Source: a virus
Lineage: Duplodnaviria; Caudoviricetes
Direction: 5' to 3' (one strand)
Length of the DNA stretch: 64,000 nt
Virus record (IMG/VR): IMGVR_UViG_3300037067_007264
Coordinates: 81,488 to 145,487 of that record
Of the stretch, positions 7,051 to 63,218 are shown in pieces. Under the pieces are notes generated by a model. That model was not told where the DNA came from. It saw nothing but the letters and a program-made list of their open reading frames with translations, and did no database searches. A program made the position numbers and the translations under genes. Positions within the stretch are counted from its first letter, which is position 1; each line of letters starts with the position of its first letter.

Positions 7051-7320
7051 TCTTATGTGGTGTACTTAGAAGATGGAGGCTCTTATGAGCATTATCTTTT
7101 CTTCTGAATGCAAAGCTAGTTTTGAACCTGAACCTGAGTTGGGGGAGCCAAGACGAAAAGCACGAAGGAAAGGGAGGCCTCGAAAGGGAGAAGACAAAGA
7201 TCTTAAGTCTTCAATTCGTTCGACTGCAGGAAGACTCGATGAGTTTGATGACGAGGATGAAGGCTACTAAGTTCTCCTGAGGGTCATGAAGAGTGTTCTT
7301 ATGAACACTCTTCAAGTACC

Positions 7321-56327: not shown

Positions 56328-59300
56328 CCTTCAAGTACCACCTACTCTCTCATCTGTTGAATCCGACGCCAATAACCTATCTGTCACACCGACATAGGTA
56401 TCCTTCAAACCCCATCTACTCTCTCATCTGTTGAATCTGGTCGACTCGCCGACGCAGGGCTCGCCAACATAAGCCTTCAAGTACCACCAACTCTCTCACC
56501 TGTTGAATCACATCTTCGGGCGGCCAGTCCTGCTCAGCAGAATTCCTTCAAGTACCACCAACTCACTCATCTGTTGAATCCGGTGAAAGCACTTCTGGAT
56601 GACTCATTCATTGGGACCTTCAAGTACCACCAACTCACTCATCTATTGAATCGGTCCATTTGCAGACGCAACAGAGCGACAGTTAGGTCCTTCAAATACC
56701 ACCAACTCACTCATCTGTTGAATCAAAGCCTCCTAGAACGTGAGAACTGACGATTGCTCAATCCTTCAAAACCCACCAACTCTCCCATCTATTGAATCTA
56801 AGGGGCCGGATTTGTGTTCGTCATACCAATATTACCCTTCAAGTACCACCAACTCACTCATCTGTTGAATCCCACTCGGCTCTTCGAGAGGATGCTGAAC
56901 GGACTGGCATCCTTCAAACCCCACCAACTCTCACATCTGTTGAATCCCGATCTGAACGCTGCCGCTCCCGACCGACACTTTGCCAACATCCTTCAAACCC
57001 CACCAACTCTCACATCTGTTGAATCAACCCCGTGGATGACCCTGAGAAGCTCCATGTAAAGTGCCTTCAAGTACCACCAACTCTTTCATCTGTTGAATCA
57101 GGTCGATCACTTCGATCAGGACCATCTTGGCGAACCTTCAAGTACCACCAACTCTCTCATCTGTTGAATCCGTGAAGGACACCTGGATAGATCGCAACGG
57201 CGTCGAGCTCCTTCAAACCCCACCAACTCTCTCATCTGTTGAATTACGACAAGGATCTTGAAGTTACCTTATCGGCATTGCAACCTTCAAAACCCACCTA
57301 CTCACCCAGCTGTTGAATCAGGTCCTTTTCCGGGGGCATGACCTTGCTACACCGCCTTCAAAACCCACCTAACCCCTCATCTGTTGAATCAGACCAAGAC
57401 CAAGAAAGTTGATGACGCCGGCACGCCTTCAAGTACCACCTACTCTCTCATCTGTTGAATCTCTACAAGCTGCTCCACTCGGATTCCAAACAACCCAACC
57501 TTCAAACCCCACCAACTCTCTCATCTGTTGAATCCGGAGGGCTTCCTAGGTTTGGTGTGATTGATGCCAGTCCTTCAAAACCCACCAACTCACTCATCTG
57601 TTGAATCCGCGCGTAACCTGGGATGTTCTCGGACCCAGGAGGATCCTTCAAAACCCACCAACTCTCTCATCTGTTGAATCTCGATACGTTCGGGAAAAGC
57701 ACGGCAAGAGCTTCTGGCCTTCAAACCCCACCAACTCTCACATCTGTTGAATCGTCGAAAGCGTGTGCTCGAGTGGCATTCTGACGCGCCTTCAAACCCC
57801 ACCAACTCTCTCATCTGTTGAATCCTGCATTCGCGCCAGAGGCCTCGGAACCAGACTACTGAGCCTTCAAACCCCACCAACTCTCTCATCTGTTGAATCT
57901 CTACAAGCAAGCTCTGAACGGTGATCCGGTAACACCTTCAACCCCCACCTACTCTCTCATCTGTTGAATCTGCGGCAACTCAGACGTGCCACCCCGAGAC
58001 ATCAGTGCCCTTCAAGTACCACCTACTCTCTCATCTGTTGAATCCTCATCTATGGTCACCCCAAGTATGATCTCGTGGTCCTTCAACCCCCACCTACTCT
58101 CTCATCTGTTGAATCGGACACAGGGACTCCTAGAATCCACCTGCCCACCCCCTTCAACCCCCACCAACTCTCATCTGTTGAATCAAACCTCGTTCATTGG
58201 GGCCGACAGGATGGTGTCAGGCTCCTTCAACCCCCACCAACTCTCTCATCTGTTGAATCCTATATGACCCTCATTGCCGATTGGATGATCCCCTAACTCC
58301 TTCAACCCCCACCAACTCTCTCATCTGTTGAATCCTAGGGGGGGTTGGGTCTCCCTCGAGGAACTCCACATCCTTCAAACCCCACCTACTCTCTCATCTG
58401 TTGAATCAAAGCAAGAGTAACTGACGAAGAGCATCACCGCAGCCTTCAAACCCCACCTACTCTCTCATCTGTTGAATCGCCATTATAACAGTTGATATTG
58501 TACCGTCGTCCAGTAACCTTCAACCCCCACCAACTCTCTCATCTGTTGAATCTAGGGCTACTTCCTGAAGCCAAGCAATAATCTGGGCCTTCAAACCCCA
58601 CCTACTCTCTCATCTGTTGAATCAAAGTACAGGTTCCGACTGCGATCAAACTAAGATTCCTTCAAACCCCACCTACTCTCTCATCTGTTGAATCGGACCC
58701 TCAGGTGTTCACGAGTTCATCCATCTCAAGCCTTCAACCCCCACCTACTCTCTCATCTGTTGAATCATCGCGGGGATCATCTGGTAGTCAGAGGAGGAGC
58801 CAGCCCTTCAACCCCCACCTACTCTCTCATCTGTTGAATCGCTATGGGCTCGTCGAAGACGAGCAACAATCTGGTTGCCTTCAAACCCCACCTACTCTCT
58901 CATCTGTTGAATCCGGACGATTGGAATCAAGAACTAAGGGCTCATCTAACCTTCAACCCCCACCTACTCTCTCATCTGTTGAATCCAAAGACCCAATTGG
59001 GCCAACCCTCACCAAGGCGAACCTTCAACCCCCACCTACTCTCTCATCTGTTGAATCTTCAGCTGTAGTGGAATGGATTGTGGAACCGACGCTCCTTCAA
59101 ACCCCACCTACTCTCTCATCTGTTGAATCGGACGAGCATCAGAACGAGCATCTAGTCTAAGGTTGCCTTCAAACCCCACCTACTCTCTCATCTGTTGAAT
59201 CAGGGGTAGTGAAGCTTATTTCGGTGGTGACCAAGGCACCTTCAAACCCCACCTACTCTCTCATCTGTTGAATCGAGAGCTTGCTCGTAGGGATCATCAA

Positions 59301-59778
59301 CCACTACGGTTTCCTTCAAACCCCACCTACTCTCTCATCTGTTGAATCAGATTGCTCCTCGATTGACCTTTGAAGAATTCTCACCTTCAAACCCCACCTA
59401 CTCTCTCATCTGTTGAATCCTGAAAGAGCGCAAGGGGCGACCTACCCAAGGTGTTCCTTCAAACCCCACCTACTCTCTCATCTGTTGAATCGGGATACGG
59501 CCGAGCGCAAGCTGAGGCTGAAGTCAAAACCTTCAAACCCCACCTACTCTCTCATCTGTTGAATCGAGGCACTCGAGAGAGCTCGTAATGCCCTTCCGGA
59601 CCTTCAAACCCCACCTACTCTCTCATCTGTTGAATCCCTATCCCCTAACCTACCCAGCCCTGATTGATTCTCCTTCAAACCCCACCTACTCTCTCATCTG
59701 TTGAATCGGTGTGACTTGAGTTGCATGGTTTTGGTACTTCCTCCTTCAAACCCCACCTACTCTCTCATCTGTTGAATC
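56328..59778 (-). CRISPR. CRISPR array, 48 repeats / 47 spacers; repeat (crRNA sense) GATTCAACAGATGAGAGAGTAGGTGGGGTTTGAAGG, 36 nt
   Basis: Counted by hand; spacers about 35-43 nt; repeats uniform near 59778 and degenerate toward 56328, so the leader is on the right and transcription is on the minus strand, as for the cas gene. Confidence 0.98.
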
Positions 59779-60005
59779 CTCATCCATAGTGTACTAATCA
59801 ATTCAAGTACTTAGTGTGCTACTTGCGAGAGGGTGTCTAAGGCACCTTTTGAATCCCAAAATTTATGTAGGGAAGGAGCCAAGTGGTAAGACACCCTTTC
59901 TCGCTTTCTGCACTTAAAATTGTCAAAGATCACGGGTTTACCCACCGCGAGGAAAGCCTCGCGAGCGAGGTAAGGGTGAGATAAAGAACCCCACCCCTCG
60001 CAAAG
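59779..60005 (-). promoter_or_regulatory. CRISPR leader with IHF-like site, inverted repeat and boxA-like element
   Basis: ATTCAAGTACTTA (59801-59813; 1 mismatch to WATCARNNNNTTR); AGGGTGTCT/AGACACCCT IR (59830-59838 / 59889-59897); TGATCTTTGACAA on minus (59932-59920). Confidence 0.65.
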
Positions 60006-60668
60006 TCAAGCAGCCTTCTTCTCGTACTTGGCCAGTCGTTTTAGCAGGTCATTCCGTTCTTTTTTGAGGGCCTTGACTTCGTCCTCCAATTCACGGACCC
60101 TTTCTTCAGCCTCGTCAAGTTGAGTAGCAAGATTACTCTTTGGGATTCTGGGTACTTTGCTGATGAGACCATACTTCTTGCGGTAGGTGTGAATACGACC
60201 ACTAGCGGTGACCTCACTCATTGGAAACCTACGGGTTTCCATTCCCGGTTCAAGCTCCTCTTTGATGAACCTACTTCGATGACCCTCCGGTAAGCCAGCT
60301 ACTTTTGACAATACCTTGAATCCGTGGGTCTCACAGAGTTCAGGACCGAACTCTGTGAGTGCGGTCACACCGTAGCGATACCTCTTCACATCAGGGAGTG
60401 ATGTCTGATAGTAACTTAGCCAAGCATCGAAGGTGGCGCTGGGGACTGCTGACTTCTTCCAAAGGTTACTCTTTTCATAGGCTCGTAGGTAGGCTACAAG
60501 CCTCATCTCACCCTGGTCAGCATCGGTCTTCAAACCTCGGATAACATCCAGTACTTGTTCAGAGTCCGGAAAGTCTGTTGGTTTCAACTTGAGTATGGTC
60601 TTGACGATCTGGCCAGTATCACCCTTGATCTTGGAGGGGTCAATAAAGGTTACTTTTTTAGTTGGCAT
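60006..60668 (-). CDS. CRISPR-linked accessory protein (helical domain plus C-terminal coiled coil)
   Basis: Starts 9 nt after the cas stop with a GAGGT RBS; C-terminal heptads LATQLDEAEERVRELEDEVKALKKERNDLLKRL. Confidence 0.8.
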   Translation of the reverse strand: MPTKKVTFIDPSKIKGDTGQIVKTILKLKPTDFPDSEQVLDVIRGLKTDADQGEMRLVAYLRAYEKSNLWKKSAVPSATFDAWLSYYQTSLPDVKRYRYGVTALTEFGPELCETHGFKVLSKVAGLPEGHRSRFIKEELEPGMETRRFPMSEVTASGRIHTYRKKYGLISKVPRIPKSNLATQLDEAEERVRELEDEVKALKKERNDLLKRLAKYEKKAA

Positions 60669-60677
60669 CGGTTTACC

Positions 60678-62432
60678 TCATTCCGCTGCATCAGCGTCAG
60701 CATCATCATCGGGTGGATCACTTACAAGAGTAAGGTCGGTGAACTTGGTGTGTCTGTGAGTGTGCTCTGTGACTATATCGGTGAAATTCTGATCTACTTG
60801 AGCCAGGGTTTCTGGGTCATTCGCTAAAAGCAACTTGAACAGTCTCCAGGCCCTAAACAGGGTCTTCGGTGCTACGCACCCACATCCTGTTCTACACCAG
60901 ACTTCAGGAAAGCCCTCTACGGAGTGAGAGTCACATAGGGTTTTCACGCCACCGCACATAGGGCAGTTCAGAGACCCAGAGTGCTTGATCACCATGGTGC
61001 GAACACCGTGCTTCTTGCAAGCCCACGCTATCTTGTCTCGGAAGGTGCACCACGGGAATCTCCGCAATAGACGTTCTATTCTTCGATCCGGAGCATGAGG
61101 GACTGACTCCATATCGTCAATTCCGACGATAGACCCAATTGCTTTAGCATACCGAGCTATGTGAGAAGCTTGTTGCTCCATCCAGGTCTTGACCCGATCA
61201 GCCTCTTGACCCTCAACAACTGCCAAGGACAGCCGGAACCTCTTCTGTCCGTGACCCCTTCCACCCTTGCCGAGGAAAGGCAGGTGCCGCGCTCTAGCGG
61301 ATCGCATAGAATCATACTTCTGTTTGAGATGTATGAACCCAGCGGAATCTATCCCTTTCGGAAGTACCCCTCCAGCCCCGGTGTACTTTCCACGAAGGTA
61401 TCGACCTTCATTGGAGTAGACCATTGCCAGGTCGTTGAGGGCTGGGGTTACTACAAGAGCAGTACTAACCTGGGTCGGCTCGGGTCTTGGCCTCTTGAAA
61501 CCAAGCTTGAATACCCACTTACCCTCATCAAGGACCACCCGACCTTGGGTTCTCTTGTACCCATTCGTTTCCTGTAAGCACCGCTTGAGGGTAGCCCAAT
61601 CGGAACCGCCTCGAACTTGAATCCGTACGGTAAGGGGTGGAACCCGTTGGCCCTTACGAGCCCCTGCAAGCATTCGAAGGCTGAGCAGGACAATCTCTTT
61701 AGGTAGCTCTTTTGGGACATTCCGATTGCTACTTTTAAGACGGTCTCGATACTCGTCAGCCTTGATAATCTCGATACTGAAACAGTCAGCCTTGATAGGG
61801 AATCCGGTTACCTTGGGCCACGGAGGTGACTTCTCTTGGGACTCCTTTGACTCCCAATTATGATACCTATTCGCGTAATCTCGACTGGCGGTAGCCACTA
61901 TACTTGATGCCGGACGGGTTACCTTGAGGATAGGATCATCGAGACCATCGAGGTACTCACTCATCGCTTCGTTGCAGATCTTGTATGCTGCAGACTCTAA
62001 GTTTCCCTCGATTGGGTTCTGAAACTGCCGACGGTAGACAGCTTGAAGGCCCATGGTGAGTGTTCGAGATACCCCGTAGAACTGATTCTTGATAGCTGAG
62101 ACTTCCTCTTTAGAGGAGTCGGAGAATACCACTGGAAGTGTCAATGCCCCTGGCAAGTTGAACAGCGCTTCCTCGAGACCTTCGATGCTCCGAGATTTGA
62201 TAACCTCAAGAGTGGTACGACCAAGCGTGTTCCTTCCGTACTTGGCCGTCGGGCATCCATTGTACATGAATACCGAGACTTTTGGTTGCTTCTTGGGTTT
62301 TAGTCCGAGTTGATCTGCTGTCTGATGGTATTTTTCAAGCAGTTTGTAGGCTTCGGTGCTAGCCCATTCCTTGTCCTCGTCAGTGAGTTCAGGTTTTTCT
62401 TTTGGGTTTGGATCCTGTTTCTTTGCGGCCAC
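60678..62432 (-). CDS. cas12: Type V CRISPR effector, Cas12f/TnpB-like, predicted nuclease-dead
   Basis: Adjacent to the array; GRGHGQKR, RRFPWCTFRDKIAWACKKHGV and the Zn finger CPMCG...C...CG follow the Cas12f/TnpB C-terminal layout; RuvC-I LVVTPAL (D->T), RuvC-II VGIDDM (E->D), RuvC-III PKTLFRA (D->T). Confidence 0.85.
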   Translation of the reverse strand: MAAKKQDPNPKEKPELTDEDKEWASTEAYKLLEKYHQTADQLGLKPKKQPKVSVFMYNGCPTAKYGRNTLGRTTLEVIKSRSIEGLEEALFNLPGALTLPVVFSDSSKEEVSAIKNQFYGVSRTLTMGLQAVYRRQFQNPIEGNLESAAYKICNEAMSEYLDGLDDPILKVTRPASSIVATASRDYANRYHNWESKESQEKSPPWPKVTGFPIKADCFSIEIIKADEYRDRLKSSNRNVPKELPKEIVLLSLRMLAGARKGQRVPPLTVRIQVRGGSDWATLKRCLQETNGYKRTQGRVVLDEGKWVFKLGFKRPRPEPTQVSTALVVTPALNDLAMVYSNEGRYLRGKYTGAGGVLPKGIDSAGFIHLKQKYDSMRSARARHLPFLGKGGRGHGQKRFRLSLAVVEGQEADRVKTWMEQQASHIARYAKAIGSIVGIDDMESVPHAPDRRIERLLRRFPWCTFRDKIAWACKKHGVRTMVIKHSGSLNCPMCGGVKTLCDSHSVEGFPEVWCRTGCGCVAPKTLFRAWRLFKLLLANDPETLAQVDQNFTDIVTEHTHRHTKFTDLTLVSDPPDDDADADAAE

Positions 62433-62444
62433 ACATTCTCCTTA

Positions 62445-62614
62445 CCTTCCTGGCACCCACTCTAACTGACTTACGTTCGAGTAGTTGCCACTAATCGTCT
62501 ACCTAGGCTTGGTCGAGTGGGTGGGGCCGTACCTCAGTTGGTTCGGCGGTTAGCGAGTGGACGTATCCCTCAGCTTTAGGGGTGAACCCTGTCGTGACAG
62601 GTTGAAGGTCCCCT
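62445..62614 (-). ncRNA. Candidate tracrRNA (split anti-repeat) plus repeat mimic in the cas 5' leader
   Basis: Anti-repeat 1 CCTTCAACC (62608-62600); anti-repeat 2 CCCCACCCACTC (62526-62515, 11/12 to the repeat); repeat mimic AGAGTGGGTG-CCAG-GAAGG (62463-62445); promoter TTGTCA-18-TAGGTT (62650-62621). Confidence 0.65.
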
Positions 62615-63218
62615 GATAAAAACCTAGCCTTGATAGACGGTCAGTGACAACTACTCTCACTTTCAAGATCAGTTCTCTCATGTCCATACGCCTATGTCAA
62701 TCGAAAACATGGAAAAAGAAATATTAGTCGGACCGGTGTAGTGACCGGGTATGGTCGACCCAAGACTGTCCTCGAAAGACGAGAAGGCTCTCCAAGACAT
62801 GATTGACCGAGGTCAGCTACCTGGGCACACGATCGAAAATGGAAGGCTCGTGTGCCCTCGACAGGATGAATACGGACGCCGGCACCTCACTGAAGAAGAG
62901 ATGACCGCCCATCGCGAGCGGGTACTCAAGATGAAGTTTGATGAGGATTGACTTCGCCCTGGTTCTCGCGAGGATAGGTCAGGCCCGTGATGATCCCCAT
63001 CCCTGGGACTTGACCGTAGTCACGTATCGGAGGGTTCATAGCTTGAGCCAGGTACATGGCGTGACTTGCCGCCTTATTGAGAGCTACCCCAGCTTCAGGA
63101 ACCCCAGGGAACTCGTCACAAGCTCGTCTGAGGGTCGCGGCATAGGTCACAAGAGCCATGCTGACAAAAGGCCGGTCTTCTTCAGGTATCACAAAGTCGT
63201 GAGGGTTTGGCATACTGC

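Follow-up and report, generated by a model that had tools for sequence, protein, structure and literature searches.

Relation of the phage locus to described type V systems

Effectors that have lost cleavage and are accompanied by fixed partner genes include Cas12k (partners TniQ/TnsC), TldR (its associated genes), and dCas12f (sigma-E) (PMC10705468, PMC13472631, PMC10691335). We analyzed a gene of 220 amino acids (aa), hereafter called the partner, that is located between the gene of a Cas12f/TnpB-like effector and a CRISPR array in a virus of the Caudoviricetes (IMG/VR record IMGVR_UViG_3300037067_007264). The window, which is the whole stretch of 64,000 nucleotides (nt) that was analyzed, corresponds to the last 64 kb of the 145,487-bp record. 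CheckV gave the record a completeness of 28%, which indicates that the phage genome is probably several hundred kb in size. We class the locus as a type V CRISPR-Cas locus with a dedicated accessory gene; it consists of the Cas12f/TnpB-like effector with its zinc finger, the partner, and the adjacent array. The partner is very probably a dedicated part of this RNA-guided system.

TldR and dCas12f with sigma-E (PMC13472631, PMC10705468) are exapted RuvC-dead relatives of Cas12f/TnpB that carry out RNA-guided DNA binding and possess a fixed partner or cargo gene. They use single or few guides against host promoter targets, whereas the present locus has a 48-repeat array with turnover, is found in huge phages, and encodes a partner that is not a sigma factor. 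Cas12k with CvkR (PMC9938897) also combines a nuclease-dead Cas12 with a conserved neighboring gene for a helix-turn-helix (HTH) protein. However, CvkR is of the MerR type and belongs to Cas12k CRISPR-associated transposons (CASTs) with Tn7 genes, whereas the partner gave no MerR match and Tn7 genes are not present here. Translational coupling, in a position between effector and array, further sets the partner apart from CvkR. Cas12m (type V-M, PMC11013384) is likewise a compact, mobile-element-borne type V effector, and its interference relies on binding, with no cleavage of DNA. It acts without a partner and has retained the RuvC site for the processing of CRISPR RNA (crRNA), whereas here RuvC-I is lost and the second protein is always present.

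Type V-U24, as described in a survey (Altae-Tran et al. 2023, PNAS, PMC10691335), possesses a noncanonical RuvC-I and an HTH protein without an assigned function; the survey offers nothing on the function, structure, hosts, or targets of this subtype. Both the noncanonical RuvC-I and the associated HTH protein match the present locus at the level of description, the HTH fold being assigned here at weak confidence. The present system may be V-U24, in which case it had been noted but never characterized. The literature searched contained no paper describing the effector/partner system and no other use of the V-U24 name.

Linkage of the partner to the effector and the array

The partner gene (P0001; 60006..60668, minus strand) encodes 220 aa from an ATG start, as given by its open reading frame (ORF) and translation, and represents an orphan family. 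Direct reading of the sequence gave 9 nt from the TGA of the effector gene (P0002; 60678..62432, minus strand; 584 aa) to the ATG of the partner. A GAGG Shine-Dalgarno sequence at this spacer (60669..60677, minus strand) overlaps the TGA, which indicates translational coupling of the partner to the effector. Among the ORFs of the window, no gene besides the partner was present between the effector and the array. The initial annotation had described a 220-aa gene starting 9 nt after the cas stop codon as the sole gene between the effector and the leader, and the reading of the ORFs and sequence bore this out.

We read 13 distinct loci, which were those of the window, the P0003 contig, the P0014 contig, L001, the L002 group, L007–L013, and L015. 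The P0003 contig, L001, and the L002 group are close to the window; L007, L012, and L013 are intermediate; and L008, L009, L010, L011, L015, and the P0014 contig are distant (21–29% partner identity). The partner was located directly 3′ of a same-strand gene of 480–620 aa, or of its C-terminal fragment at a contig end, in 13/13 loci. The upstream gene was a verified effector relative in 11 of the 13, as established by direct alignment, a Pfam TNB match, the effector search, or hhalign (E 4e-62). The effector and partner genes overlapped by 4 nt in L001, L008, and L009 and by 11 nt in L011. The remaining gaps were 2–9 nt, with the exceptions of 143 nt on the P0014 contig, where the effector is unverified, and an apparent 44-nt overlap in L015. 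An array of 36–37-nt repeats followed the partner in all loci with downstream DNA (8/8). Repeat counts were 48 for the window, 7 for L001, 19 for L002 and 7 for L003, a strain variant of L002, 5 for L008, 2 or more for L011, 3 for L012, and 10 for L015, and the start of an array was present in L013. In the reverse test, the effector homologs P0025, P0027, and P0029, taken from the hits of the effector search, all had the partner downstream (3/3). The initial annotation had considered that homologs of the partner might be mostly unlinked from Cas12 and CRISPR; the outcome was the opposite, and the partner lay 3′ of an effector-size gene in all readable contexts.

A word-indexed search of 5.8 billion proteins gave 3 homologs of the partner, and an exhaustive phmmer search of 1.84 billion representatives gave 14 representatives at E<1e-3. 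A profile of the N-terminal domain added 3 further members from the 5.8 billion proteins and matched nothing outside the family. An hhalign comparison confirmed the partner that is most distant (E 4e-19). The family comprises approximately 20 clusters, none of which has a Pfam domain, and it is exclusive to the effector/array context. The gene and its neighbors are conserved together over partner identities of 68% to 21%, which indicates that it is a real gene and not a chance ORF. A wood-decay metagenome yielded a strain variant with two differences inside the partner gene, both at third codon positions.

Outside the module of effector, partner, and array, the neighbors differ between distant loci, and the neighborhoods of L008, L011, L012, and L015 are otherwise unrelated. 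One explanation of the association is that the partner is an unrelated phage gene that travels with the locus. This explanation is extremely improbable, because the linkage is kept at 21–29% identity in those unrelated neighborhoods with the same gene order and coupling. The contigs resemble large phages (443, 226, 91, and 84 kb) and contain many small uncharacterized genes. Four neighboring ORFs were compared with Pfam and gave no match.

In regard to the effector, guided_TnpB was the only NCBIfam match (1e-9), and a profile of 12 family members matched Cas12f1/TnpB structures at 1.6e-17 to 7e-9. In the profile alignment to Cas12f1 structures, the position of the RuvC-I catalytic Asp is T329 in the window effector and I or R in the relatives, and it is never D. 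The RuvC-II position is D439 in the window effector, where E is expected, and members of the window clade have T, V, N, or I at the RuvC-III position. The zinc finger (TNB domain) is intact, with an invariant CxxC...CxxC. The initial annotation had called the Cas12 dead, and with the RuvC-I Asp gone in every member of the effector family, the description as dead, or at least as non-canonical, is justified. The family is rare (11 clusters at E<1e-5). A pattern search of 185,579 prokaryote genomes gave no relative, and a search of IMG/VR gave the L002-type phage only. The effectors fall into two clades, of which the distant one (L008:744-2183, L015:6341-8044) has a RuvC-II Glu and a RuvC-III Asp together with an Arg at RuvC-I. 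The pattern across the two clades looks like stepwise decay, or like a site that is altered rather than dead.

The CRISPR array (56328..59778, minus strand) consists of 48 repeats with a length of 36 nt and of 47 spacers, most of them 35–39 nt long. The repeat at approximately 58151-58186 has a 2-nt deletion (34 nt). The older, leader-distal repeats have more variants, with GTA, AAC, or CCC at positions 8–10 and A or T at position 16. The leader (59779..60005, minus strand) spans the 227 nt that separate the partner gene from the first repeat. Its mean column identity among the window, L001, L002, and L013 was 69%, a degree of conservation similar to that of the coding genes. It contains an invariant TTGACAA and four invariant GCGAG/CTCGC motifs, and hairpins are located just past the stop codon of the partner and, with a GGTGCC…GGCACC-type stem, before the first repeat. 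These conserved elements could be promoter, RNA-structure, or protein-binding elements. No operator-like palindrome was consistently common to the leader and the region upstream of the effector, or kept across diverged loci.

The region upstream of the effector (62433..62650, minus strand) contains two anti-repeat-like segments, CCTTCAACC (62608-62600, 8/9) and CCCCACCCACTC (62526-62515, 11/12), which were identified by eye against the reverse complement of the repeat. The split anti-repeat suggests that this region is a candidate trans-activating crRNA (tracrRNA) or a 5′ untranslated region (UTR) resembling a single guide RNA (sgRNA). In one run of an RNA library, contigs map to portions of the partner gene, of the effector, and of the region upstream, one of them covering 62284-62633, which is no proof of transcription. 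In the distant locus L008, two 28-nt direct repeats are located before and over the effector start (L008:684-711 and L008:729-756). Both terminate in …GGGTGCAGG, resembling the 3′ end of the L008 CRISPR repeat (…CTGGCAGG), and may be repeat-derived elements in the 5′ region of the effector.

The two leader-proximal spacers (59637-59671 and 59708-59742) each had one perfect protospacer, in separate contigs of the wood-decay metagenome. These contigs, of 1747 nt and 658 nt, had a depth of approximately 300x and were otherwise unrelated in sequence. In the same metagenome, the phage locus was present at 23x with 10 differences in 3 kb. The 5′ flanks of both protospacers, in the crRNA sense, end in TTC (…AGTTC and …GTTTC). 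We regard 5′-TTC as a candidate protospacer adjacent motif (PAM), which would agree with Cas12f, whose PAMs are T-rich. The spacers gave no match in the 145-kb contig of the phage, in related loci, or in 50,697 GenBank phages, and the two protospacer-matched spacers gave no exact match in IMG/VR, JGI metagenome contigs, or GTDB genomes. The 30-nt flanks of the protospacers had no match in the phage. The motif GGTGTA-N8-ATG had two exact matches in the window (57337-57353 and 7059-7075), where 0.4 were expected; one of them is inside a spacer. With two matches only, one being the spacer itself, this motif was not used to argue for targets in kin phages.

The array of L002 (10936-12231) and that of its strain variant L003 (8121-8559) have only the leader-distal spacers in common, and L002 has 12 additional repeat-spacer units at the partner-proximal end. 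This difference fits a polarized gain or loss of spacers at that end. The perfect, TTC-flanked protospacers and the strain arrays that differ only at the partner-proximal end indicate that the CRISPR system is in use. Separate studies of groundwater (perhaps the sample of origin), wood decay, and landfill yielded metagenomes that contained the locus (59700-62700) at >99% identity; the phage lineage is widespread.

These features also bear on whether the partner is a helper of RNA biogenesis or adaptation. Such a helper would bind the leader or the repeat:anti-repeat RNA for the processing of pre-crRNA, or would guide a host Cas1-Cas2 in the manner of integration host factor (IHF). The RuvC site of the effector is defective, so the effector would not process pre-crRNA. 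The partner gene adjoins the leader and the protein has a basic linker and tail, and strain arrays differ at the partner-proximal end, yet a Cas1 profile gave no match in the 145-kb contig and no cas1 or cas2 was seen near the L002 and L003 arrays. However, the anti-repeat-like element found upstream points to the common route by tracrRNA and host RNase III, and the partner has neither a nuclease motif nor an RNA-binding motif, nor does it match proteins of these kinds in structure. Moreover, the contig is approximately 28% of the genome and Cas1 may lie elsewhere. We consider a helper of this kind improbable.

Architecture and fold of the partner protein

The partner is basic (pI 9.5), as the initial annotation had stated, and the L..YE...LW......TFD.WL segment pointed out there was confirmed in the translation as L61..Y64-E65...L69-W70......T79-F80-D81.W83-L84. 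W70 and L84 of this segment, together with Y97 and S151, are invariant in the family (20/20 sequences), and A50, D51, E54, E65, S67, R96, G116, and P149 are near-invariant in the same 20 sequences.

An AlphaFold model of the full-length protein had a predicted local distance difference test (pLDDT) score of 88 with a 17-sequence alignment, and the helical domain extended over residues ~10–165. The N-terminal all-helical domain (residues 1–172; 60153..60668, minus strand) modeled alone gave a pLDDT of 89.9 and a predicted template modeling (pTM) score of 0.80. Residues 1–48 form a short helical extension that is present only in the window clade. A basic linker (residues 146–178; 60135..60233, minus strand) follows, which carries the conserved P149-x-S151 and in which the pLDDT dips to ~60, with low confidence at 170–178. 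The remainder is a leucine-zipper-like coiled coil (residues 177–219; 60012..60140, minus strand) with a basic tail, modeled as one long helix. The initial annotation had predicted a C-terminal coiled coil of about 35 aa; the predicted helix is slightly longer. The a/d positions of its heptads are L180/L184, A187/V191, L194/V198, L201/R205, and L208/L212, of which L201 is invariant and L184 nearly invariant in the family.

Scans against Pfam, NCBIfam, PHROGs, and PADLOC gave matches to the coiled coil only and assigned no family, and the family profile against PDB sequences gave coiled-coil noise only. The same scans gave no profile match to Cas1, Cas2, Cas4, TniQ, sigma-70/ECF, or MerR/CvkR, and these identities were rejected, in agreement with the earlier statement that the partner resembles neither Cas1, Cas2, Cas4, or TniQ nor a sigma factor. 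A bZIP identity was also rejected: bZIP_1 scored 15.5 bits against a cut-off of 27.6, and the zipper is split from the basic linker by the proline-containing, low-pLDDT residues 170–178. As judged by sequence, the partner is outside ParB, DUF3102, bZIP, and all known cas accessory families.

We compared the N-terminal domain with known folds by structure and by language-model features. The DNA-binding domain of ParB (6s6h_B; Z 6.2 over 100 residues, rmsd 4.9) was at the top of the matches in an exhaustive VIA-align scan, followed by KorB (8qa8_A, 5.4; also 4.5), Spo0J (1vz0_A, 4.6), and SopB (3mkw_B, 4.3; also 4.1). The DNA-binding HTH domains of MuA I-beta, CENP-B, and StbA were also among the top matches, as was the unrelated Raf1 (Z 5.3–5.6). 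Foldseek against BFVD gave nothing at E<0.1; three DUF3102 proteins (E 1.0–4.3, TM 0.40–0.46) and two partitioning proteins were found, all within E 0.5–4. Feature neighbors in the ESM Atlas included DUF3102 clusters (0.92, with 156 shared features against 170 typical of true members), and the shape neighbors were HTH_ParB, Noc, ParB_N, and DUF222 clusters, the ParB_N cluster having a TM of 0.56 by query. Since several weak methods agree, we hold an HTH-type, ParB/DUF3102-like fold to be probable for the modeled domain. On the KorB-aligned ranges, the candidate HTH would consist of helix 80–86 and helix 94–107, with R96 and the invariant Y97 near the start of the latter. The resemblance to DUF3102-like helical DNA-binding domains noted in the initial annotation thus received weak structural and feature-level support, with ParB-type matches beside it, but no counterpart at the level of Pfam profiles (E≤10). 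The DUF3102 profile likewise gave no match in the phage contig.

The DNA-binding domains of ParB, KorB, and SopB and DUF3102 (PF11300) are the best, though weak, structural and language-model neighbors of the N-terminal domain. The partner differs from them in several respects. ParB has an N-terminal CTPase domain (ParB_N PF02195, with the GERRxR box) and a C-terminal dimerization domain of its own, whereas the partner has no ParB_N match and carries a leucine zipper. Nor does it have the HTH_ParB (PF17762) sequence match of the ParB/KorB family. Of these proteins, KorB acts as a repressor, and those of the ParB type form bridges and spread along DNA.

Possible roles of the partner

The initial annotation had suggested either a co-effector recruited by the dead Cas12 or a regulator of the locus. 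Its premise of a dedicated link to the locus held, and we retain both options. The first is the one that we favor, tentatively and at somewhat less than even probability: the partner would act as a dimeric accessory subunit through which RNA-guided binding leads to the silencing or exclusion of target DNA. The linkage, the coupling, the exclusivity of the family, the loss of RuvC-I, and the architecture of the partner are together best fitted by a dedicated accessory subunit. The loss of RuvC-I beside a fixed partner gene was counted for this reading in view of the precedents of Cas12k, TldR, and dCas12f, and so were the recurrent DNA-binding HTH domains among the top VIA-align matches and the signs that the system is in use.

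As an accessory subunit, the partner would be produced together with the effector by virtue of translational coupling, and its C-terminal leucine zipper would probably mediate dimerization. The effector, loaded with crRNA and probably also with tracrRNA, would bind 5′-TTC-flanked protospacers in competing or host DNA without cutting. The partner would then join the bound complex, through contacts with the effector and with DNA, and hold neighboring DNA or a second complex. A transient R-loop would in this way become a stable block of transcription or replication. A co-fold prediction of the effector and the partner with alignments scored 0.00 and carries no weight for or against binding.

Several observations weigh against the accessory subunit. 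An HTH protein fixed beside a nuclease-dead Cas12 has proved to be a plain regulator, as with CvkR (PMC9938897), and the binding-only Cas12m interferes without a partner, so a co-effector is not strictly needed (PMC11013384). The VIA-align Z scores (≤6.2) are under the reliability level of the tool for helical proteins, and Foldseek searches of the full and domain models against PDB gave nothing at E<1. In Pfam, hmmscan of 10 N-terminal domains gave no HTH_ParB, ParB_N, or DUF3102 match at E≤10, and the full protein gave no HTH_ParB match at E≤1. Furthermore, the N-terminal domain has a net acidic character in the distant clade and in about half of all members, and D51, E54, and E65 are among its best-conserved polar residues, which is unusual for a generic DNA-binding domain.

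All 20 family members have a linker with a net charge of +1 to +9 and a coil and tail that are largely basic, and the N-terminal domain of the window clade is basic (pI 8.6–9.7). Nevertheless, the acidity of the N-terminal domain and its conserved acidic residues call for caution on a simple DNA-binding reading and leave room for a protein-binding face. The partner might then be a modulator or chaperone whose acidic face (D51, E54, and E65) lies on the nucleic-acid-binding surface of the effector and keeps the effector inactive or soluble until the guide is loaded. The position of conserved acidic residues on a long helix, the net acidic domain of the distant clade, and the strict co-occurrence and coupling are consistent with such a role. 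However, its sole basis is charge, the domain of the window clade is basic, and there was no structural match to a known DNA mimic; we regard it as highly unlikely.

The second option, the main rival, which we consider possible but less probable than the first, is a locus-specific regulator. The partner would act as a dimeric HTH repressor or activator at the cas promoter, at the leader, or at both, and would set the levels of effector, tracrRNA, and crRNA. The HTH-type fold and the dimerizing coiled coil of the model are compatible with this role, and the adjoining leader, with its conserved columns, invariant TTGACAA, repeated GCGAG/CTCGC motifs, and hairpins, would offer sites. There are also precedents: CvkR is a repressor beside the nuclease-dead Cas12k of type V-K CASTs (PMC9938897), and V-M loci have been drawn with a transcription regulator (PMC11656645). 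The arrangement is in addition like that of Aca proteins at acr operons and of KorB and KfrA on plasmids. Against a regulator, the upstream region and the leader share no operator-like palindrome, and none is kept across diverged loci. The family occurs in no other context, unlike usual families of regulators, and the N-terminal domain is acidic in half of the members. The coupling would give near-equimolar amounts of the two proteins, which is more than a repressor usually needs; the Aca proteins make this a weak argument.

Within the accessory-subunit reading, we also considered a more specific and unlikely mechanism. The partner, dimerized by its zipper and resembling ParB or KorB, would be loaded at R-loops formed by the RuvC-dead effector and would then bridge or spread on the DNA of a rival phage, a plasmid, or a host locus, giving a nuclease-free shutdown. 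Oligomerization, spreading, or bridging by the partner is pure conjecture at this point. If true, this would be a new nuclease-free mode of CRISPR interference in huge phages and a two-protein programmable silencer of approximately 800 aa in total.

Pairs formed by nuclease-dead Cas12 or TnpB have each given a new RNA-guided activity, which is transposition for Cas12k, repression for TldR, and transcription start for dCas12f with sigma-E. The present locus supplies a further such pair, with a long array that is still gaining spacers, a setting in huge phages, and a partner of no known family. The pair is directly testable, since the components, the candidate TTC PAM, and natural targets are in hand. 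If the partner is a regulator, the locus shows how huge phages control their CRISPR loci. If it is a co-effector, the pair would represent a new route from RNA-guided binding to interference and a compact two-part silencing tool.

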